DNA of 64,000 bases, from contig CALUTU010000005.1 in assembly GCA_944323785.1 (NCBI GenBank), positions 39,319 to 103,318 on the forward strand, written 5' to 3'. The position numbers were made by a program, and so were the translations under genes. This document shows positions 4,310 to 51,855 of the stretch, one piece after another (position 1 is the stretch's first letter; each line of letters opens with the position of its first letter). The stretch comes from an uncultured Bacteroidales bacterium. Its GTDB lineage: Bacteria; Bacteroidota; Bacteroidia; Bacteroidales; UBA932. The notes under the pieces were generated by a model, which had not been told where the DNA came from, searched no databases, and saw only the letters and a program-made list of their open reading frames with translations.

Positions 4310-6218
4310 GCTGCAGCCTGAATCTCAGACAGTCTTTCTCCGAGTCCGCATACTTGGAGGCCGAGCATTTGAGACTCAGGTTGAACCACCTTACGGGCTT
4401 GTATGTCAGAAGCGCATACAGGCCCGCTCCTTTTCCGTAATACGCAGGGACTGAGAACGAACCGGGCACATCCCCCTCATAGCAGTACACTCTGGAGTCC
4501 CAGTCCTCAGTCCAGAATACAGTGGCACGGACCGAGCACCTGAAACGTCCCGACGGGGTGCGGTATCCCGCTTCCTGGAACAGCAGCCCGCCCATACTGC
4601 CGGCATAAGTGCCCTCAAAGCGCGTGGACAGCTCCAGCCCGCTGTTTCCGACGTAACTGTATTCCGCTCTCAATCTGAGCTGACGGGTTCCCCGCCCGTT
4701 GTCATATGTCCCGCTGATCTTGGCATACAGCGAATGTTCCTGTGTCACGCTCCAACCGCAGTCCAGCGATGCCCTCAAGGCATCCGAGGGCGTTCTCACA
4801 CCGAAGCGGGCATAGGGAAAATGAGTATATTCCACCGATGAGGACAGGGTAACATCCCGCACCGGAGTCCATCTCAGGGCAACCGAGACCCCATGCTCGT
4901 TGTTGACGTTGCTGCGGCAATAGGCTCCGGCGTGAGTCGCAATATAGTCCTTGGAATAATACCTGTACACCACGGATGTTTCCACCGAGGAGGAGAACGG
5001 ATATACCGCGCCCAGTATTCCAGCAAAGTCAAAGTCCTTGTCCAGGGCCGCCTCACCAAAGATCCTGGCACCTCTGAATGAAAGCAGAAAATCCACGGAG
5101 GCATTGCCCCACCAGCCGTCATACCGCAGGTGAGCATTGTAATAGGAAGTCCTCCTGCCGTCCAGCCTGTCATACCGGTAGGCGGCGACTGTCGCTCCCG
5201 CCTTCAGCCAGCTGTTCCTCCAGGAAACATTCGCCCCGGTCACCTGCTCCCGCAGAGCGTCTCTTGCGGCACGGTCCGCATCGCTGTCATGCAGTCCGTC
5301 TTCCGGCTTGGAGACGAAATACTCCCCCTCCACTTTCGCATCCTGACCGTTGTCCGAGTAAAATACGGTCGCCTCAATTCCCGCCGGAAAAGCGAGAGTC
5401 AAGCCGGCACCGTGAAAATAATTGTTCTCGTCCGTGGATGTGTAGGGACGGACTCCAGCCTGTCTCCTTACGAACGTGGAAGGCGAGGCCAGAGACGACA
5501 TAGAGAACCCGCTCCAGAGCACCAGGCCCTGGCCCAGACGCAGCGAGTAATTCCCGGCCACGGCACTGACAAGACGGTAACGGCCGTCCCTGGAGAGATT
5601 TATATCACCGGCCGAGACATAAAACGAATAAAAATCCGGGAATCCGTACTCACCGGCATCGCTTTCCATGGTAAAGCCCGCGCCATACTGCCCGTTCAAC
5701 TCCGCACTGAACTTGGTCAACAGCGGTACCGGCAGGCCGTCATTATCCTCCTTTTTCCGCTTCAGGTCCCATTTTGTCCGGAATACCAGCTTGCCCGACA
5801 CATCCAGCCGTCTGTCTTCCTTCACCTCACCGGGCAGGAATGTCACAAACGGCCTCAGGACTCTCACCTTCTCCGCATCGAAGCCGTCCACCAGCGACAG
5901 CTCCGCTTCCGAGGAGACTGCTCCGTATTCTGCCCTGTATTCGAGCAGACTGGCCACCATGAACGGGGTCATCAGCGGGAAGGCCTCCAAAGCCTCCCTG
6001 TCCGCCATATTGAGGTCCAGCGGCCTGGTCATAAGTCCCGCCAGGTATTCCGCCAGCTCTTCCGGATCTTCCCCGCCGGCTTCGCACTGCTCCTCGATCA
6101 TACGTACTATGGCATCCGGCAGTTCCTGAGCCTTCACCGGCACACTGCACAACAAAAAAGCCGCTCCGAGAAGGGCGGCTCCGTAAACTATCGTCTTCCC
6201 TTCAAATCTCCCCCACAT
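4293..6218 (-). CDS. Helix-hairpin-helix (ComEA-like) N-terminal domain protein with a large C-terminal, probably beta-barrel, domain
   Basis: 641-aa ORF with a signal peptide (…LLCSVPVKAQ). HhH-like region reads LNMADREALEAFPLMTPFMVASLLEYRAEYG. The C-terminal part is rich in alternating aromatic/polar strands and ends in ...LQLSWPF. The plus-strand ORFs across it are R/P/S-rich junk. Confidence 0.8.
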   Translation of the reverse strand: MWGRFEGKTIVYGAALLGAAFLLCSVPVKAQELPDAIVRMIEEQCEAGGEDPEELAEYLAGLMTRPLDLNMADREALEAFPLMTPFMVASLLEYRAEYGAVSSEAELSLVDGFDAEKVRVLRPFVTFLPGEVKEDRRLDVSGKLVFRTKWDLKRKKEDNDGLPVPLLTKFSAELNGQYGAGFTMESDAGEYGFPDFYSFYVSAGDINLSRDGRYRLVSAVAGNYSLRLGQGLVLWSGFSMSSLASPSTFVRRQAGVRPYTSTDENNYFHGAGLTLAFPAGIEATVFYSDNGQDAKVEGEYFVSKPEDGLHDSDADRAARDALREQVTGANVSWRNSWLKAGATVAAYRYDRLDGRRTSYYNAHLRYDGWWGNASVDFLLSFRGARIFGEAALDKDFDFAGILGAVYPFSSSVETSVVYRYYSKDYIATHAGAYCRSNVNNEHGVSVALRWTPVRDVTLSSSVEYTHFPYARFGVRTPSDALRASLDCGWSVTQEHSLYAKISGTYDNGRGTRQLRLRAEYSYVGNSGLELSTRFEGTYAGSMGGLLFQEAGYRTPSGRFRCSVRATVFWTEDWDSRVYCYEGDVPGSFSVPAYYGKGAGLYALLTYKPVRWFNLSLKCSASKYADSEKDCLRFRLQLSWPF

Positions 6219-10665: not shown

Positions 10666-10956
10666 CTATTTACCGAATCTCTTCTCTTTTATCTTCTTGA
10701 TCTGGTCCTGGAGGACATCGACGCAGTCCACAACCGCGTCCTCGAATGTAGGTGCAGTCCTCTCGATGATGAGGTCATCTCCGGGAATGCCCAGTCTCAC
10801 CTTCACTGTCTTGCCATGGTCAGGCTGAACCGTGAGAGCGACATCACAGCTGATGATGTTGTCAAAAAACTTTTCCAGCTTGCCGACTTTCTTGTCGATG
10901 AAGTCCAGCAGTTTCTGATCTGCATCGAATTTGATCGATTGAACGTTAATCTTCAT
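10666..10956 (-). CDS. hpf: Ribosome hibernation-promoting factor / RaiA family
   Basis: 96-aa ORF. Sequence is typical of short HPF (MKINVQSIKFDADQKLLDFIDKKVGKLEKFFD...). Confidence 0.88.
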   Translation of the reverse strand: MKINVQSIKFDADQKLLDFIDKKVGKLEKFFDNIISCDVALTVQPDHGKTVKVRLGIPGDDLIIERTAPTFEDAVVDCVDVLQDQIKKIKEKRFGK

Positions 10957-11926
10957 GTTTACCTCCGTTTTTTGCTCTTGGATGAGCGGTTAAATATGTA
11001 TCTTTCAACTGTTCAAAAGAACTGTGGGTATACACCTGCGTGGTAGCCAGCGAGGCATGTCCCAGTATCTCCTTTATGGAATTAAGATCCGCTCCGTTGT
11101 TGAGCAGATGAGTTGCCAGAGAGTGGCGCAGCACGTGCGGAGACTTCTTCCCGCTGAATCCTTCCACTCCGTTCAGCTGCTCATGTACCGCCTCATTCAC
11201 CAACTCCGGATACAGCGGCTTGCCCGCGTCTGTCAGGAAAAACCTGCCGTCATCCGGACTTTCCGGGAACTCTTTCTTAATTCTCTCCAAATATAATAAA
11301 ATTTCCTGACAAACGGAAGCGGGAACGGGAATTTCTCTCATTTTATCCCCTTTTCCCAAAACCGTAAATACCATTCTGTCCAGGTCGAAGTTCCTACGTC
11401 CAAGTCCCACTATCTCCGAACGGCGCATTCCGGTGGCATACAACACCAACACCATCAGCACATTGCGGTAGTCATGCCAGCTCATCTCAGAGCAGGCCCT
11501 GCCGGAGCCGTCCAGTCCTTTGGTCTTAAAGAACTGTTCCAGGGATTTTTCAGTATAGAACTCCGGCAGACGGTGACTCTCCTTCGGTCTGGGGACCTTT
11601 CGCACCGGATTGGAAAGCAGTACGGACTTATGCACAAGCCAGGTACAGTAGCTGCTCAATGCCGAGAGATGCAGGTTGACTGTGCGCGGGCTCAGTCCAC
11701 TCCTCAATGACGAGGCTATGTATCCGCGTATACAACTGAATATCAATGCTTCTTTCTGCTGCTCAGGCGTAAGTACCCCTATCTGAAAGGAACCGTCCTC
11801 CTCACACAGATCCGGATACTGAACTCTGTAAAAATCCTCCAGCGCCGCCCTGTATATGGCACATGTTCGCGGAGAATACCTTTTCTCAGACGTGATATAT
11901 TGCAGAAACTCCTCTACCATTGTCAA
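10946..11926 (-). CDS. xerC: Tyrosine recombinase XerC/XerD family
   Basis: 326-aa ORF with the C-terminal catalytic region HVLRHSLATHLL...LGHASLATTQVYTH. Divergent from rpsU, a housekeeping arrangement I recall as common in Bacteroidales. Start could be 11920. Confidence 0.85.
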   Translation of the reverse strand: MTMVEEFLQYITSEKRYSPRTCAIYRAALEDFYRVQYPDLCEEDGSFQIGVLTPEQQKEALIFSCIRGYIASSLRSGLSPRTVNLHLSALSSYCTWLVHKSVLLSNPVRKVPRPKESHRLPEFYTEKSLEQFFKTKGLDGSGRACSEMSWHDYRNVLMVLVLYATGMRRSEIVGLGRRNFDLDRMVFTVLGKGDKMREIPVPASVCQEILLYLERIKKEFPESPDDGRFFLTDAGKPLYPELVNEAVHEQLNGVEGFSGKKSPHVLRHSLATHLLNNGADLNSIKEILGHASLATTQVYTHSSFEQLKDTYLTAHPRAKNGGKHED

Positions 11927-21258: not shown

Positions 21259-21291
21259 TAAGGGGCTGCGTCACAACAGCCCCTTTCTTTT
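21259..21291 (+). terminator. Rho-independent terminator (fimbrillin-like gene)
   Basis: AAGGGGCTG-N8-CAGCCCCTT followed by TCTTTT. Confidence 0.75.
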
Positions 21292-21363
21292 AACCCATCT
21301 TTCCCCATCTTTCCGCGAGCCATTTTGCAGGCCGTATCTGTTCCATTAGTTCATTCGCTGTCA

Positions 21364-21548
21364 CTTTTACAATGTCCAGCACACCATTTAAATATATTTC
21401 CCTAATTATCAAGCATATACATTTAGTAACTTGCTGGACTTCGTACATTTCGCCACAAAACCACCATATTACACCGAGTCCAGCAGACATCTTTTTTCTG
21501 GGCGCTTGATTATCGGCCACTTCTCTAATCTACTCCTGCTGGACTCCT
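21364..21548. repeat. R3 double-hairpin module, diverged solitary copy
   Basis: Aligns by eye with 36458-36645 and 36911-37098 at roughly two-thirds identity, with indels. Keeps all four GTCCAGCA / TGCTGGAC arms and the leading CTTTTACAATGTCCA. Confidence 0.8.
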
Positions 21549-21601
21549 CTAGACGGGCAAACTGAACACGAACGTTATGGACGGCTACTTCGCAGATGCC
21601 C

Positions 21602-21646
21602 ATAAAAAAAGCACAGCCCATTCGGGAAAACCGGAATGGACTGTGC
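21602..21646 (-). terminator. Rho-independent terminator (end of lipoprotein operon 1)
   Basis: The minus strand reads GCACAGTCCATTC-loop-GAATGGGCTGTGC (one G-U pair) followed by TTTTTTTATG. Lies 32 nt after the stop at 21678. Confidence 0.8.
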
Positions 21647-21677
21647 TGATTAATTCAGACTGGTCAGTAGCCTACCG

Positions 21678-34564: not shown

Positions 34565-36256
34565 ATGGACAACACACATCAGCGGTCACTTCGGGCACTG
34601 CTCGAGTTCGCCTTTACACGATATGCCGACAAGCCGTTCCTGCATTTCATCGACGGGCCCGGCTACAGCTACGGAGAGTTCCACGCCAAGGTCTATGAGA
34701 CCGCCGGACTGCTGGCCCGCTACGGTATGGGCAGAGGCGACCTCGTGGGGCTGCTCTCGCAGAATATGCCCAACTGGGGCGTAGCGTATTTCGCCACAGC
34801 CGCCTTCGGCATGATTACAGTGCCGATGCTTCCGGATTTTTCCGAGAGCGAGATCAAGCACATACTCAAGCACTCGGAGGCCAGAGCCCTGTTCGTATCC
34901 AGGAAACTGCTGCCGAAAGTCCTGCCGAAAGCCATTGACCGACTGGAGCTGATTATCTGCCTCGACGATTTTTCCATCATCAAGGGAGCTCCGTGCAGTG
35001 AGCCGGCAGAGCTGCCCTCCGAAGCGGACATACAGCCGGACGATCTGGCCGCCATCATCTACACATCAGGCACTACCGGCAGTTCCAAGGGCGTGATGCT
35101 CAGCCACCGCAACCTGTGCGCCAACCTCTGGTCCACCGAGGATGTCCGCCCGAGCTTCGACTGGGACGTGTGGCTGTCCCTGCTGCCCCTGTCCCACACC
35201 CTAGAGTGCAGCATGTGTCTCCTCCTTCCGATGCAGGCCGGAGCCAGCGTCAACTACATCGAAAAGGCACCGACACCGACCATTCTTATGAATGCCCTGG
35301 CACGGGTAAGGCCCACGACCATCCTCTCCGTGCCCCTTATTATAGAAAAGGTATACCGCAGCGCGGTGCTGCCGAAACTCACCGCATCACCTCTGCTCCG
35401 GTTCTTGCACCGCATCCCTCCTTTCAGGAAAATGATGCACCGCAAGGCCGGCCGGATGCTGATGGAAAAATTCGGAGGCCGCATCCGTTTCTTCGGCATC
35501 GGCGGGGCAAGGCTTGACCCCGAGGTGGAACGTTTCCTGCTTGAGGCCCGTTTCCCCTACGCCATAGGCTACGGACTCACCGAGACCTCGCCGCTCATCG
35601 CAGCAGCCACCCCGGACATGGTCCGGCTCGGATCCACCGGCCCGGTAGTCAAAGGCGTGGAGCTGCGTCTGCTCAACAAAGACCCCAGGACAGGCGTAGG
35701 CGAGATAGCCGTCAAGGGAGACAACGTCACACGTGGCTATTTCAAGAACCCCGAGGCCACTTCCGCAGCCTTCACCGAGGACGGCTGGTTCCTGACAAAG
35801 GATCTCGGCAAGCTGGACAAGGACGGCTGGCTCTACATCAAAGGCCGCTCCTCGACTACCATTATCGGCCCGAGCGGAGAGAACATCTATCCCGAAGAAG
35901 TGGAGAGCGTCATCAACAGCCACGATATGGTGTCCGAGTCCCTGGTCACCAACCGCAAGGGCAGGCTTACAGCCTTGGTTCATTTCGATTCCGATAAGCT
36001 CAAGGCCTTTCTCGAGTCCACTGACGAGCTGAAACGCACTGCTCAGGAGAAGCTGGAGAACCTCAAGAAAGAGATTCTGGACTACGTCAACCAGAAAGTC
36101 AGCAAATTCTCCCGCATCAGCGAGATAGACCCTCAGGAGGAGGAGTTCGAGAAGACTGCCACCCACAAGATCAAGCGCTACCTCTACGACGGCTCCAAAT
36201 CCAAAGACTCCAAATCCAAAGACCCCAAATCCAGCAAGCCCTCACACAGCAGGTGA
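34565..36256 (+). CDS. AMP-dependent long-chain acyl-CoA synthetase/ligase
   Basis: 563-aa ORF with the AMP-binding signature IIYTSGTTGSSKGV and GYGLTET. The K/S-rich C-terminal tail and stop codon lie inside the repeat-element tail. Confidence 0.9.
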   Translation: MDNTHQRSLRALLEFAFTRYADKPFLHFIDGPGYSYGEFHAKVYETAGLLARYGMGRGDLVGLLSQNMPNWGVAYFATAAFGMITVPMLPDFSESEIKHILKHSEARALFVSRKLLPKVLPKAIDRLELIICLDDFSIIKGAPCSEPAELPSEADIQPDDLAAIIYTSGTTGSSKGVMLSHRNLCANLWSTEDVRPSFDWDVWLSLLPLSHTLECSMCLLLPMQAGASVNYIEKAPTPTILMNALARVRPTTILSVPLIIEKVYRSAVLPKLTASPLLRFLHRIPPFRKMMHRKAGRMLMEKFGGRIRFFGIGGARLDPEVERFLLEARFPYAIGYGLTETSPLIAAATPDMVRLGSTGPVVKGVELRLLNKDPRTGVGEIAVKGDNVTRGYFKNPEATSAAFTEDGWFLTKDLGKLDKDGWLYIKGRSSTTIIGPSGENIYPEEVESVINSHDMVSESLVTNRKGRLTALVHFDSDKLKAFLESTDELKRTAQEKLENLKKEILDYVNQKVSKFSRISEIDPQEEEFEKTATHKIKRYLYDGSKSKDSKSKDPKSSKPSHSR

Positions 36257-36296
36257 ACCGAAACTCCGCCCAACCGGTATACCAGCACTCACTTTT

Positions 36297-36404
36297 ATGA
36301 AAATTCCAGCAGTCGAAAAGACCAGGCCCTCCCACCGCTTCGCGGCGGGCCCCTCCCTCTAGAGCCGAGGGCGGCTAGTCTTTTCTCGTTGCTGGAATTT
36401 CATA
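36297..36404. repeat. R2 long imperfect palindrome (~108 nt), copy 1
   Basis: ATGAAAATTCCAGCAG...GAAAAGACCAGGCCCTC...GAGGGCGGCTAGTCTTTTC...TGCTGGAATTTCAT. The arms pair over about 35 bp with small bulges. Confidence 0.9.
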
Positions 36405-36457
36405 AGAACACCATACGGAGGAAAGTGTAGTTTCCCCAAAGGCTGGCTTAATAAGAA

Positions 36458-36645
36458 CTTTTACAATGTCCAACACACCGCTCAAATGTATTGTGCTGAT
36501 TATTAAACGCATACATTTTGGCGATTTGCTGGACTGCCCGCTTTTTGCCATAAAACAACCATTTCACCCCAGGTCCAGCAGATGCTCTTTTTCAGAGTGC
36601 CTGTATACTAGGCACTTTCCCAAGCAGGCCCTGCTGGACCTCCCC
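36458..36645. repeat. R3 double-hairpin module, copy 1
   Basis: GTCCAACA...TGCTGGAC and AGGTCCAGCAG...CTGCTGGACCT stems. Nested perfect hairpin AGTGCCT-N7-AGGCACT at 36596-36616. Confidence 0.9.
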
Positions 36646-36661
36646 TGAAGTCTCATGCCAT

Positions 36662-36706
36662 GGGGGAAAGTGAACCGTTTTCGCGGAAAAACCCGGCACT
36701 TTCCCC
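36662..36706. repeat. R1 45-nt hairpin, solitary copy
   Basis: GGGGGAAAGTG-AACCGTTTTCGCGGAAAAACCCGG-CACTTTCCCC. Confidence 0.9.
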
Positions 36707-36749
36707 GCACTCCATTCACCCCCTTTAAGAACCTGACAGCATAGACTCT

Positions 36750-36857
36750 ATGAAAATTCCAGCAGTCGAAAAGACCAGGCCCTCCCACCGCTTCGCGGCG
36801 GGCCCCTCCCTCTAGAGCCGAGGGCGGCTAGTCTTTTCTCGTTGCCGGAATTTCATA
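36750..36857. repeat. R2 long imperfect palindrome, copy 2
   Basis: Same as copy 1 with one arm substitution (TGCCGGAATTTCAT). Confidence 0.9.
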
Positions 36858-36910
36858 AGAACACCATACGGAGGAAAGTGTAGTTTCCCCAAAGGCTGGC
36901 TTAATAAGAA

Positions 36911-37098
36911 CTTTTACAATGTCCAACACACCGCTCAAATGTATTGTGCTGATTATTAAACGCATACATTTTGGCGATTTGCTGGACTGCCCGCTTTTTG
37001 CCATAAAACCGCCATTTCACCCCATGTCCAGCAGATGCTCTTTTTCAGAGTGCCTGTATACTAGGCACTTTCCCAAGTAGGCCCTGCTGGACCTCCCC
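36911..37098. repeat. R3 double-hairpin module, copy 2
   Basis: About 98 percent identical to copy 1 by eye. Confidence 0.9.
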
Positions 37099-37114
37099 TG
37101 AAGTCTCATGCCGC

Positions 37115-37477
37115 GGGGGAAAGTGAACCGTTTTCGCCGAAAAACCCGGCACTTTCCCTGGAGGTGGAAATGCCAAGTGCGGCGAGAGAGGCCTGTGGAG
37201 CCAGTGCCCCGGCCGGCCACGGGGGAAAGTGAACCGTTTTCGCCGAAAAACCCGGCACTTTCCCCGGAGGTGGAAATGCCAAGTGCGGCCAGAGAGGCCT
37301 GTAGAGCCGGTACCCCGGCCGGCCATGGGGGAAAGTGAACCGTTTTCGCCGAAAAACCCGGCACTTTCCCCGGGGGTGGAAATGGCAGGTGCCGCCAGAG
37401 AGGCATGTGGAGCCGGTACCCCTGCGAGCCACGGGGGAAAGTGAACCGTTTTCGCGGAAATTCCCGGCACTTTCCCC
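37115..37477 (+). repeat. 106-bp tandem repeat array (3 full periods, 4 R1 hairpins)
   Basis: R1 hairpins start at 37115, 37221, 37327 and 37433, an exact 106-bp period. The ~61-nt inter-hairpin segments are also about 85-90 percent identical to each other. Confidence 0.95.
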
Positions 37478-37537
37478 GAGGGTCTAGGACAAGGGGAGAA
37501 AAAACGCAAAGGTGGGACGAAATGTTGAATGAAATGA

Positions 37538-37833
37538 AAAGGTAAAAGGGCATGTGACTGGAGGGCTGACGAGGATGATGTGGGACGGAAAGGTAAAAGG
37601 GTATGTGACTGGGGGCTGACGAGGATGATGTGGGACGGAATGGCACAAGGGCGTGTGACTGGAGGGGCTGACGAGGATGATGTGGGACGGAAAGGTAAAA
37701 GGGTATGTGACTGGGGGGCTGACGAGGATGATGTGGGACGGAAAGGTAAAAGGGCGTGTGACTGGAGGGGTTGACGAGGATGATGTGGGACGGAAAGGCA
37801 CAAGGGCGTGTGACTGGAGGGGCTGACGGGACA
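37538..37833 (+). repeat. ~52-bp G-rich, C-poor tandem repeat array (~5.7 units)
   Basis: Unit is AAAGGTAAAAGGGYRTGTGACTGGRGGGCTGACGAGGATGATGTGGGACGG. Units start near 37538, 37589, 37640, 37692, 37744 and 37796. Confidence 0.9.
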
Positions 37834-37849
37834 AGAATGAGACGGGATG

Positions 37850-37899
37850 GGAGGAAAGAGAAGGAGCGCATTCGCCGTCTGTCCGGTCGAATGCGCTCC
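37850..37899 (-). terminator. Rho-independent terminator (end of lipoprotein operon 2)
   Basis: Perfect 12-bp stem GGAGCGCATTCG-N13-CGAATGCGCTCC. On the minus strand it is followed by TTCTCTTTCC. Lies 33 nt after the stop at 37932. Confidence 0.75.
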
Positions 37900-37931
37900 C
37901 TATCAGATTAAACTGGTACTACCCTTATGCT

Positions 37932-39227
37932 CTACTTGGTAACAGTTGACGACATGCTTGTCGGAGCCGCCTTTACCACAGTCATTACTTTACTGTCCTG
38001 CGCAGCGTAACTTGTAGAGGTCTTAGTGAACGTTAAAGTTCCGGCAGGAATATAAGTAGGGTAATCACCGTAATATACACCCACACCGTTATCAAATGAG
38101 AAAATATCTGCAGCCACAACGGTATACTGTACATTGGAACTGCTCATGAGCTCGCGAGAAATGCTCGTCTTGGTATCAGGGTCTATGAGAAATGCGTACT
38201 CAGTACCGCTAAAGATAGTGACAACATCATCTTCCTCATTCCAGCATATAGGTGCACATAGCATATCATTGCCATTTAGGTCCTGAGCTACGGCCATATC
38301 ACCGGTCACGATGCCAAGACACGGCTTTCCATCCTCGCTCTCGATTATGGTAGCCCAAAGAGAATACTCTGACAGAGGAGACAATCCGCTTATCCACACA
38401 TAGTTCTCGTTGGTGGACGGCTGTATGGTAACTGGAATTTCGTCGGCATAGCCAGTTTTGTCAAATTCGAACACTATCTGATCGTTCGAATTGTAGTCAA
38501 CGACAACCCTCGCCGTACATCCTACAGTGTAGGTTCCCAACCACGATCTGAGTTCCTCTACCGGCTCCACGACTTCGTGCTGAACAGTGAACGAGCACTC
38601 TCCAGGAAGTGATTCGCGATATTCGGCTGAGCCTTCTTCAGGCTGGGCGATTACACTCACAGTATGAGTGGTGGCAGTAAGGTCGGAAGTCTGGTATGTG
38701 ACAGACGTCTCCGTGGTAGTCTCCCATTCGCCTGAATCGAGGGAGTAAATGTAAGATGCGGCATGCTCAATGCTGGACCAGCTGACAACAACCCCTCCTT
38801 TACCGTCAGGATTAGCGGTCACTTCCGGAGTCTCCAGTCTTTGAGGCTCTACCTGAGCGGTCACTGTGAAAGTGTATGAGCCGGGTTGCGAGGCAGTGTA
38901 CTGATCAGCGGCATCCAGGGCCGGATTGGCAATGACATAGACCGTATGCTCGCCTTCAGCCAGATCAGAGGTGCTGACGGTTACCGATGTCTGGTCTGTG
39001 GTTCTCGCAGCGTTGCTGTCAATGTTCCAGCTGTAAGTCGCCGCATTGGGGATTTCTGTCCAAGATACCGTAACATTGTCTCCATTGACGGTGGCCGACA
39101 CCTCCGGAGTAGCAAGAGCCACTGCCTCGGCAGGGCCATTCTGTTCCTGGCATGAGAGCGCTACGGCAGCAGCCGCTGACACAGCAAAGAGACGCAGATA
39201 AAAATAGTTCATTTTAAAATATTGCAA
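37932..39227 (-). CDS. Surface lipoprotein with two FN3-like domains + C-terminal domain (operon 2, gene 4)
   Basis: 431-aa ORF with lipobox VALSC followed by QEQ. Two internal repeats are present (TPEVSATVNGDNVTVSWTEIPNAATYSW... and TPEVTANPDGKGGVVVSWSSIEHAASYIY...). Confidence 0.75.
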   Translation of the reverse strand: MQYFKMNYFYLRLFAVSAAAAVALSCQEQNGPAEAVALATPEVSATVNGDNVTVSWTEIPNAATYSWNIDSNAARTTDQTSVTVSTSDLAEGEHTVYVIANPALDAADQYTASQPGSYTFTVTAQVEPQRLETPEVTANPDGKGGVVVSWSSIEHAASYIYSLDSGEWETTTETSVTYQTSDLTATTHTVSVIAQPEEGSAEYRESLPGECSFTVQHEVVEPVEELRSWLGTYTVGCTARVVVDYNSNDQIVFEFDKTGYADEIPVTIQPSTNENYVWISGLSPLSEYSLWATIIESEDGKPCLGIVTGDMAVAQDLNGNDMLCAPICWNEEDDVVTIFSGTEYAFLIDPDTKTSISRELMSSSNVQYTVVAADIFSFDNGVGVYYGDYPTYIPAGTLTFTKTSTSYAAQDSKVMTVVKAAPTSMSSTVTK

Positions 39228-51508: not shown

Positions 51509-51553
51509 GGGGAAAGTGCCGGGAATTTCCGCGAAAACGGTGCACTTTCCCCC
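51509..51553. repeat. R1 45-nt hairpin, inverted copy
   Basis: GGGGAAAGTGCCGGGAATTTCCGCGAAAACGGTGCACTTTCCCCC. This is the reverse complement of the 37433 copy with 1 mismatch. Confidence 0.9.
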
Positions 51554-51564
51554 GTGTGGTGAAA

Positions 51565-51670
51565 ATGAAAATCCGGCAACGAGAAAAGACTAGCCGCCCT
51601 CGGCTCTAGAGGGAGGGGCCCGCCGCAAAGCGGTGGGAGGGCCTGGTCTTTTCGACTGCTGGATTTTCAT
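51565..51670. repeat. R2 long imperfect palindrome, inverted copy 3
   Basis: Reverse complement of the 36297-36404 family with a few substitutions. It is followed (51671-51722) by the inverted 'tail' homologous to 36247-36296. Confidence 0.9.
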
Positions 51671-51855
51671 TAAAATGGGCGCAGGTGTACCGGTGTGGCT
51701 GGATTTCGGTTCACCTGCGGTGTGCCTGTGGCGTGTGTTAATTCCAGACAGGGATAGGGCGTGTCCAGGGATCAGGAGGTTACGCTGCCAGTAGGCATAG
51801 TGTATGTACACGGCAGCAGATAAGAGGGCAGATACGCCTGAGCCGGAAGACCTGA

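Follow-up and report, generated by a model that had tools for sequence, protein, structure and literature searches.

Palindromic intergenic repeats of the REP/BIME (repetitive extragenic palindromic/bacterial interspersed mosaic element), BOX, and MITE (miniature inverted-repeat transposable element) kinds are well studied in Proteobacteria and Firmicutes; to our knowledge, they are almost undescribed in gut Bacteroidales. In this study, we analyzed R3, an element with a 194-nt core that occurs three times in a 64,000-nucleotide stretch of DNA from an uncultured Bacteroidales bacterium (GenBank assembly GCA_944323785.1, contig CALUTU010000005.1, positions 39,319 to 103,318 of the forward strand), hereafter called the window. 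R3 is a module of a previously undescribed, lineage-specific family of dispersed repeats in Candidatus Coprenecus-like Rikenellaceae. We moderately favor the view that it is a non-coding, non-autonomous mobile or repeat DNA module of a dispersed, hairpin-rich mosaic, and that it is recognized in the form of folded single strands.

Transposases of the HUH/Y1 class bind hairpins, make use of the bases immediately 5′ of the foot, and do not duplicate their target. Like the REP/BIME elements of systems with RAYT (TnpA-REP) transposases, R3 belongs to extragenic, multi-copy palindromes that lie in mosaics with other motifs in variable number and orientation, has a narrow lineage range, and would be expected to leave no target duplication. 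It differs in its large, structured hairpins of 67 nt, compared with simple stems of 20–65 nt, and in a copy number of tens at most, as far as seen, versus hundreds. With the ends of IS200/IS605 elements and with palindrome-associated transposable elements (PATEs) R3 shares two hairpins on the same strand that have the same foot and are arranged directly, not inverted, a conserved sequence 5′ of each foot, and an empty site that is seamless and free of target-site duplication in the single case at hand. In contrast to these elements, R3 has hairpins that are about three times larger, shows no evident relation between guide and cleavage tetranucleotides, has unit ends that are not the same in its A and C types (described below), and has no tnpA or tnpB nearby. 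The pneumococcal BOX elements (boxA-boxB(n)-boxC) and the enterobacterial ERIC/IRU are likewise modular intergenic repeats with predicted stable stem-loops and a variable number of modules near gene ends, and we know of no mobilizing enzyme for them, as for R3. The R3 mosaic is unrelated to them in sequence, comprises more module types (K, LK, P, H1, R3, S106, and T52), and differs in that R3 itself holds two internal hairpins.

R3 copies, hairpins, and conserved boxes

Copy A, the reference of our alignment A2 and an A-type element, has its core at positions 36457–36650 of the plus strand. Copy B (36910–37103, plus strand) is part of unit two of a tandem duplication with a unit of 453 nt (36296–37158, units 98% identical) that includes both copies. 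Copy C (21363–21556, plus strand) is a solo C-type element lacking the K hairpin and is 69% identical to copy A (134/194). As the initial annotation had stated, each of the three copies carries four boxes, which form two hairpins. The boxes are GTCCAGCA/TGCTGGAC, the 8-bp foot shared by both hairpins, and their order in every window copy is GTCCA(G/A)CA, TGCTGGAC, GTCCAGCAG, CTGCTGGAC. In copy A, hairpin 1 (36468–36534, plus strand) runs from box 1 (GTCCAACA, 36468–36475) to box 2 (TGCTGGAC, 36527–36534), and hairpin 2 (36571–36641, plus strand) is closed by the 11-bp stem AGGTCCAGCAG/CTGCTGGACCT, which contains box 3 (GTCCAGCAG, 36573–36581) and box 4 (CTGCTGGAC, 36631–36639). The four boxes of copy C lie at 21374–21381, 21432–21439, 21478–21486, and 21536–21544. 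Both R3 hairpins, from box to box, are exactly 67 nt long (8 + 51 + 8), a common length on which the earlier description had not remarked, and 38 nt separate them. The 8-mer GTCCAGCA is present 19 times in the window against 2.6 expected occurrences, a count reached in 0 of 100 shuffles.

Comparison of the window copies showed where R3 is constant. The four boxes and an 11-nt block at the 5′ end are identical between copies A and C at 42 of 43 positions, compared with 61% elsewhere (Fisher p = 3e-7); loop 1 is 67%, the spacer 69%, and loop 2 53% identical. Copies A and C fold far better than shuffled sequences on both strands, with z scores from -3.7 to -6.9. The outer two pairs of stem 3:4 do change in a compensatory manner between A and C (AG..CT versus GA..TC). 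The perfect 11-bp stem 3:4 reported for both 36.5-kb copies holds for copy A, while copy B has one T-C mismatch (ATGTCC.. versus ..GGACCT). The nested hairpin at 36596–36616 exists in copy A and is broken in many copies of the family.

We next turned to relatives of R3 outside the window. A search of one-genome-per-species contigs with a 20-mer of the 5′ block (ACTTTTACAATGTCCARCAC) as seed found 14 loci, of which 13 are genuine and one (L008) is a chance match. Eight of the loci belong to the Candidatus Coprenecus pullicola metagenome-assembled genome (MAG) DVHR01, which has nine R3 copies at these eight loci; others come from uncultured Bacteroidales MAGs and an 'Alistipes sp.' MAG. A second search, with a pattern in which boxes 2 and 3 were fixed at a set distance from each other, yielded 18 metagenome loci and no match in viral contigs; box 4 was left free in both searches. 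Homologues thus do exist elsewhere: after de-duplication we obtained 32 distinct full-length copies from at least 15 genomic contexts. All relatives come from Ca. Coprenecus-like Bacteroidales MAGs and gut metagenomes, and Coprenecus is placed in Rikenellaceae. Collections of plasmids and phages contained no R3 match, and a search for more diverged copies with an nhmmer profile over all retrieved loci returned only self-palindromic matches. The copies fall into three subfamilies: the A type, which forms the majority, the C type with the 21.4-kb copy and its orthologues, and a third type at L003:4623-4827.

Within the alignment of 32 copies, the 51-nt interior of hairpin 1 (columns 26–76) is hypervariable: pairwise identity averages 74% and is 47% at its lowest. 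Conservation at the level of sequence, unpaired positions included, extends over the 5′ block (ACTTTTACAATG), the boxes, the spacer, and a large part of hairpin 2. Only 5 of the 32 columns in boxes vary, compared with 129 of the 162 columns elsewhere, and box 4, despite being free in both search patterns, varies in one sequence only. The A and C subfamilies agree in the sequence of all four boxes, from which the third type departs by just two changes, in boxes 3 and 4. Such constancy across subfamilies fits sequence-specific recognition, or interchangeable pairing of the boxes, more easily than it fits two independent RNA stems. Indels are essentially absent across the 32 copies, including 13 that were found via the 5′ seed alone. 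The several indels said to separate copies A and C amount to a single 1-nt indel, and, contrary to the claim that the reading frame is destroyed, the +0 frame is open in most copies. All 32 copies are collinear; in none is a loop inverted or the segment between direct boxes deleted. Inspection of loop 1 showed no adenine-specific variation of the kind made by diversity-generating retroelements.

A polymorphic unit and a hairpin-rich mosaic

At 21.4 kb, copy C is part of a presence/absence unit of 227 nt (21343–21569, plus strand), composed of the 194-nt core with 20 nt on its 5′ side and 13 nt on its 3′ side. Using homologues of the Fn3 protein, we found nine further alleles of the Fn3/Mfa-like intergenic region. 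R3-C is carried by L035, L036, L037, L038, L042, L043, and L044, as well as by L012 and the window, whereas L041 lacks exactly positions 21343–21569, with near-identical flanks and both gene terminators kept. L039 and L040, which represent a homologue of 59% identity with another arrangement of genes, do not inform on presence or absence. The junction in L041 reads ...GTATCTGTT/GAACGTTATGG..., the slash marking the joint, and has neither a target duplication nor microhomology; a circle formed from the 227-nt unit would have the junction ...CTGAACAC/CCATTAGTTC..., and the ends of the unit have no terminal inverted repeat. The unit is present in the more divergent alleles, which makes excision or deletion slightly likelier than insertion. 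Whichever the direction of change, R3-C behaves as a discrete DNA unit, and its seamless presence or absence points to mobile DNA rather than to an RNA gene. A palindromic target site was considered and rejected, as the hairpin of the empty site is no better than that of shuffled sequences (z about 0). Close beside the R3-C unit, at 21300–21319, there is another polymorphism: a tandem duplication of 10 nt (GGAAAGATGG, minus strand) that the window and L038 have and that L041, L035, L036, and L043 lack.

The A-type copies are embedded in a mosaic with the recurrent module order K-P-H1-LK-R3-K-(S106-K)n-T52n. H1, a long GC-rich hairpin of 110 nt, occupies 36296–36405, with a second copy at 36749–36858, and is followed by the linker LK (36406–36456 and 36859–36909, plus strand), which lies directly 5′ of R3, has a short GGAGGAAAGTG..TTTCCCC hairpin, and holds a shortened form of K. 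Every A-type R3 has a K after it, and C-type copies are solo. After copy A, the K hairpin (GGGGGAAAGTG...CACTTTCCCC, 36649–36707) and the spacer P (36708–36748) fill positions 36649–36748 (plus strand). A K-S106 tandem array with a period of 106 nt and about 3.5 units (37102–37478, plus strand) comes after copy B, and the T52 array, a 52-nt tandem repeat of about 5.7 units (37538–37828, plus strand), closes the mosaic. A solitary K-H1 pair in reversed orientation (51509–51671, minus strand) lies between convergent genes.

Several comparisons showed that this mosaic is in flux. The number of modules differs by strain, with one H1-LK-R3 unit in the reference C. pullicola MAG and two in the window. 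At different loci and in different genomes, H1 lies either way round between P and LK flanks that are identical (compare the window copies with L006:868-977, L013:3678-3787, and L025:768-877); its interior of about 80 nt flips between the 15-bp inverted repeats ATGAAAATTCCAGCA/TGCTGGAATTTCAT, which have at their inner edge the heptamer TCCAGCA that is also common to the R3 boxes. H1 may be a switch in the manner of an inverton, or else a flip-flop hairpin, and the Bacteroidetes promoter motif TAnnTTTG is not found inside it. Between the window and the orthologous L001, the segment from the right arm of H1 to loop 1 is 75–78% identical, compared with 97–100% for the flanks, and loop 1 of L001 resembles that of the unlinked copy L010. 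We conclude that a paralogous variant replaced the H1-LK-loop 1 segment between orthologues by recombination among copies. Modules are gained, lost, tandemly duplicated, and, in the case of H1, inverted.

The repeats also coincide with a larger rearrangement. In the sister species L045 to L047, the AMP-binding gene is immediately followed by the Metallophos, 5′-nucleotidase, and ABC2 genes, which are antisense to it, whereas in the window they are found about 14 kb from that gene in the opposite orientation. This displacement and reversal implies an inversion of about 14–15 kb (approximately 37.9–51.5 kb), the ends of which coincide with oppositely oriented repeat modules, namely the cluster at 36296–37870 and the K-H1 pair at 51509–51671. 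The repeat cluster is missing downstream of the same AMP-binding gene in L046 and L047, which have no intergenic DNA there, and L045 has a different, analogous hairpin array instead. This position is apparently a hotspot for hairpin arrays that are specific to a species. The array in L045 (positions 4681–5200) consists of CACCTTCCGAAGGTGG palindromes separated by K-like loop sequence (GACGATTTCGCAGGAAAAC..).

A possible mechanism on single-stranded DNA

We propose that the two 67-nt hairpins, which lie on the same strand, have the same foot, and carry conserved sequence just 5′ of it, would be recognized on single-stranded DNA by an enzyme acting in trans. The most plausible class of enzyme would be the HUH/Y1 transposases, in their RAYT or IS200/IS605 form; we favor this class because its members insert and excise without duplicating the target, because they bind hairpins rather than terminal inverted repeats, and because they include a Bacteroidetes subclass with reportedly recurring atypical structures. 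This is Y1 subclass 2.6 (RAYT group 5), which occurs mostly in Bacteroidetes and is reported to have 'atypical secondary structures' on its flanks, with further copies elsewhere in the genome (PMC6006769). The boxes would be kept by sequence- and structure-specific recognition together with hairpin-templated DNA correction, which would explain why they never diverge in the way that independent RNA stems would. The interior of hairpin 1, 51 nt in length, would be free to vary and would be shuffled among copies by recombination. Effects on neighboring genes, such as hairpins at transcript ends or breakpoints of inversions, would be a by-product.

Several observations weigh against this proposal. 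No open reading frame (ORF) with an HUH...Y motif is present in the window and about 290 kb of retrieved loci. The R3 hairpins, at 67 nt, are longer than known substrates, which measure 20–25 nt in IS200/IS605 elements and 21–65 nt in REP elements. Neither a GTAG nor a CGTC foot is found: the feet read ..ACAAT/GTCC and ..CCCAG/GTCC in the A type and ..CACCGA/GTCC in the C type, and by inspection the tetranucleotides 5′ of the feet (CAAT, CACC) are unrelated to the flank and end sequences (TGTT, ACAC) under the rule known from IS608. The single empty allele is compatible with insertion, excision, or an unusual deletion alike, and the 20 and 13 nt that flank the core of copy C are not common to the A type, so that the ends of the element are not defined. 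Three compensatory base pairs and a strongly heterogeneous pattern of conservation would be compatible with a functional RNA as well, as discussed below. We thus say that R3 seems to work like the families associated with HUH/Y1 transposases and do not assign it to any of them.

Other mobile or recombining elements resemble R3 in part. MITEs mobilized by DDE transposases (for example, Correia/NEMIS and the Porphyromonas MITEs) are likewise small, dispersed elements that do not encode proteins, can form hairpins, and are polymorphic for insertion, but the one polymorphic R3 site differs from them; this type of element was rejected since the 227-nt unit has no terminal inverted repeats and its junctions no target-site duplication. 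Integron attC sites have a short pair of inverted boxes around a variable, imperfectly palindromic interior, as R3 does, and recognition of a folded single strand would give the same pattern of fixed boxes and free interior. However, the R3 boxes do not fit RYYYAAC/GTTRRRY, the hairpins are 38 nt apart and not separated by cassettes, and there is no integrase (IntI) or cassette array at R3. Unlike the invertons of Bacteroidales, R3 is collinear in 32 of 32 copies, and H1 does flip but lacks TAnnTTTG.

On present evidence, R3 reveals neither a new class of RNA nor a new mechanism, and its general kind, a mosaic palindromic intergenic repeat or small mobile element, is already known. The family provides a concrete, sequence-defined case in uncultured Rikenellaceae that combines several modules, a seamless polymorphism, an invertible hairpin, and clusters at inversion breakpoints. 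It could serve as a marker for strain typing, and R3 can be regarded as a candidate substrate of the little-understood Y1 transposase subclass that is specific to Bacteroidetes.

Alternative explanations for R3

The initial annotation had read R3 as a product of selection on RNA structure. An explanation along this line, which we consider unlikely, holds that the copies are paralogous small RNAs or cis-acting elements, in which the hairpins or an alternative pairing of boxes 2 and 3 are under RNA selection and the variable loop serves as a targeting or seed segment on a conserved scaffold. The strong folding of both strands, the conservation of the boxes, and the compensatory pairs are consistent with it; furthermore, the absence of indels implies a constraint on length, the conserved blocks outside the stems resemble those of an RNA scaffold, and copy C lies between two intrinsic terminators, as an independent gene could. 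To assess pairing, we tested a nested structure of 44 pairs in six helix segments: two are stems 1:2 and 3:4, three lie inside hairpin 1, and the sixth is the nested hairpin within hairpin 2. The counting tool treated the six as four helices. Across the 32 copies, 86.9% of the cells were paired on the plus strand, compared with 86.6 ± 0.2% in shuffled alignments (69 of 500 shuffles were as high), and 86.3% on the minus strand, compared with 86.2% (186 of 500). Pairing is thus at the shuffled level on both strands, an outcome that the initial annotation had itself named as refuting selection on structure. The cores of the boxes never vary and are for this reason uninformative on covariation either way. 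The covariation term of RNAalifold contributed -0.85 of -23 kcal/mol on the plus strand and -1.6 of -26.5 kcal/mol on the minus strand, where hairpin 1 was not recovered. Many copies have breaks in the nested helices: of the 32 copies, 16 lack pair 45:58, 18 lack 151:161, and 23 lack 144:168.

Only three changes are truly compensatory: the two linked outer pairs of the C type and an inner G:C to A:T exchange in L003:4623-4827. Correction by template switching within inverted repeats of DNA is an established mutational route that yields compensatory changes without selection on RNA. The single-sided changes in the two main stems comprise about four that leave a wobble pair on the plus strand only, about four that do so on the minus strand only, and about four that break the pair on both strands. 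The hint of a minus-strand transcript drawn from G-U versus A-C mismatches did not hold up in the larger alignment, as helix 29-32:70-73 favors the plus strand and positions 23, 122, and 161 favor the minus strand; with these mixed signals, we dropped the assignment of a strand by this asymmetry. Four boxes with shared sequence in the A and C subfamilies would not be needed by independent stems. Rfam 15 gave no match at the gathering score in the whole window and, at E <= 10, only chance miRNA-like matches in 36250–37950, and ARAGORN found nothing. R3 has an arbitrary orientation to neighboring genes and is present or absent as a DNA unit. Overall, the boxes are conserved far above background and a few compensatory changes exist, but covariation does not exceed that of shuffles, and the RNA reading of R3 is weakly supported.

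R3 has no consistent promoter or terminator, and its plus strand holds no Bacteroidetes promoter motif. On the minus strand, a -7-like box that matches the Bacteroidetes motif TAnnTTTG perfectly (TACATTTG; window positions 36483–36490, columns 33–40) is present in 23 of 32 copies and forms a conserved island inside the hypervariable loop 1. It is no more than suggestive of an RNA gene and would fire outward, towards LK and H1, and so would transcribe out of R3, not through it. We also did not rely on the comparison of orthologues, in which R3 is 98% identical and third codon positions of the neighboring gene are 69–76% identical, as a sign of purifying selection, because this gene is a recombination mosaic, the 3′ end of which is itself 90–97% identical.

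It is rather unlikely that the GTCCAGCA boxes are sites on double-stranded DNA for a host recombinase or regulator and that R3 is a recombination or architectural cluster related to H1. The shared heptamer TCCAGCA at the inner edge of the H1 repeats, the occurrence of the H1 interior in both orientations, the invariant sequence of the boxes, their fixed 51-nt spacing in both hairpins, and the repeat clusters at the breakpoints of the 14–15-kb inversion agree with such a role. Yet none of the 32 copies has an inverted loop or a deletion between direct boxes, recombination between the 15-bp arms explains the flip of H1 without a dedicated enzyme, and an 8-bp half-site with a 51-bp spacing is unlike known recombinase cores. 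No recombinase gene is linked to R3; the only tyrosine recombinase of the window is at least 10 kb away. Its gene (10946–11920, minus strand) encodes a XerC/D-like Phage_integrase protein of 324 aa, and a solitary GTCCAGCA box at 10903–10910, 36 nt past its 3′ end, is probably coincidental.

We give little credence to the idea that R3 is a host element for transcript ends, that is, a bidirectional terminator or an mRNA-stabilizing hairpin between convergent genes, a role that has been proposed for some REP/BIME elements. Its hairpins are stable on both strands, and both R3 sites of the window are between convergent genes. The expectation that copies always lie at convergent gene ends failed in the larger set, however, where convergent, tandem, and divergent intergenic regions are all occupied and many copies are upstream of genes or between tandem genes (L009, L010, L018, and L019 in divergent regions upstream of a co-directional gene; L003, L006, and L007 between tandem genes). 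At 21.4 kb, both genes have canonical terminators of their own (21262–21291, plus strand; 21604–21647, minus strand) with R3 between them, and the allele without R3 keeps both. No U-tract follows the R3 hairpins.

Still less probable, in our estimation, is the idea that R3 is transcribed as a protein-bound scaffold of two hairpins in which the exchanged 51-nt loop would act as a programmable guide or antisense segment, or as a guide for a mobilizing enzyme. We compared loop 1 with its own flanks, as for the bridge RNA of IS110 elements, and rejected this idea: by inspection, loop 1 of copy C has no match to the CTGTT/GAACG target, and the A-type copies are all flanked by modules and not by unique DNA.

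The possibility that R3 encodes a small protein (a 60-aa ORF at 36466–36648, about 139 aa in other copies) can practically be dismissed, for although the +0 frame is open across most copies, 55 ORF clusters come from public gene callers, and the tandem units of 453 and 348 nt are divisible by three, the substitutions are neutral for the frame, the frame is shifted in copy C and stopped in window copies and L007, the C-terminal parts only read through whichever module comes next, and there is no Pfam match. The frame starts with an ATG at 36466 and often continues into the downstream modules. Among 111 substitution events in A-type copies, 33 were synonymous, 76 non-synonymous, and 2 created a stop, compared with a neutral expectation of 33.7, 75.9, and 1.4, and the other five frames behaved alike. 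Variability by codon phase (142/169/140) showed no excess at third positions. R3 is therefore non-coding, as the initial annotation had held, and its ORF is a chance product of composition combined with the absence of indels. The repeats explain assembly breaks and spurious deposited ORFs: ORFs of 60–215 aa run through R3, K, and S106 in the window (36466–36648) and in L002, L005, L009, L015, L016, L024, L025, L027, and L028, and the 55 public protein clusters that stem from R3 ORFs, many of them 139 aa long, are database contaminants from a repeat.

Two further observations concern sequences beside R3. A 34-nt part of the H1 interior (36327–36360; GCCCTCCCACCGCTTCGCGGCGGGCCCCTCCCTC) is 94–100% identical to multi-copy sequences of Azospirillum replicons (E values down to 4e-7), an unexpected cross-phylum match for a short GC-rich hairpin. 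The AMP-binding gene (34565–36256) is a recombination mosaic among close genomes, in which blocks of 53–80% identity alternate with blocks of 95–100%, and its 3′ end contains a 15-nt tandem repeat (36193–36233) that encodes SKSKD repeats.

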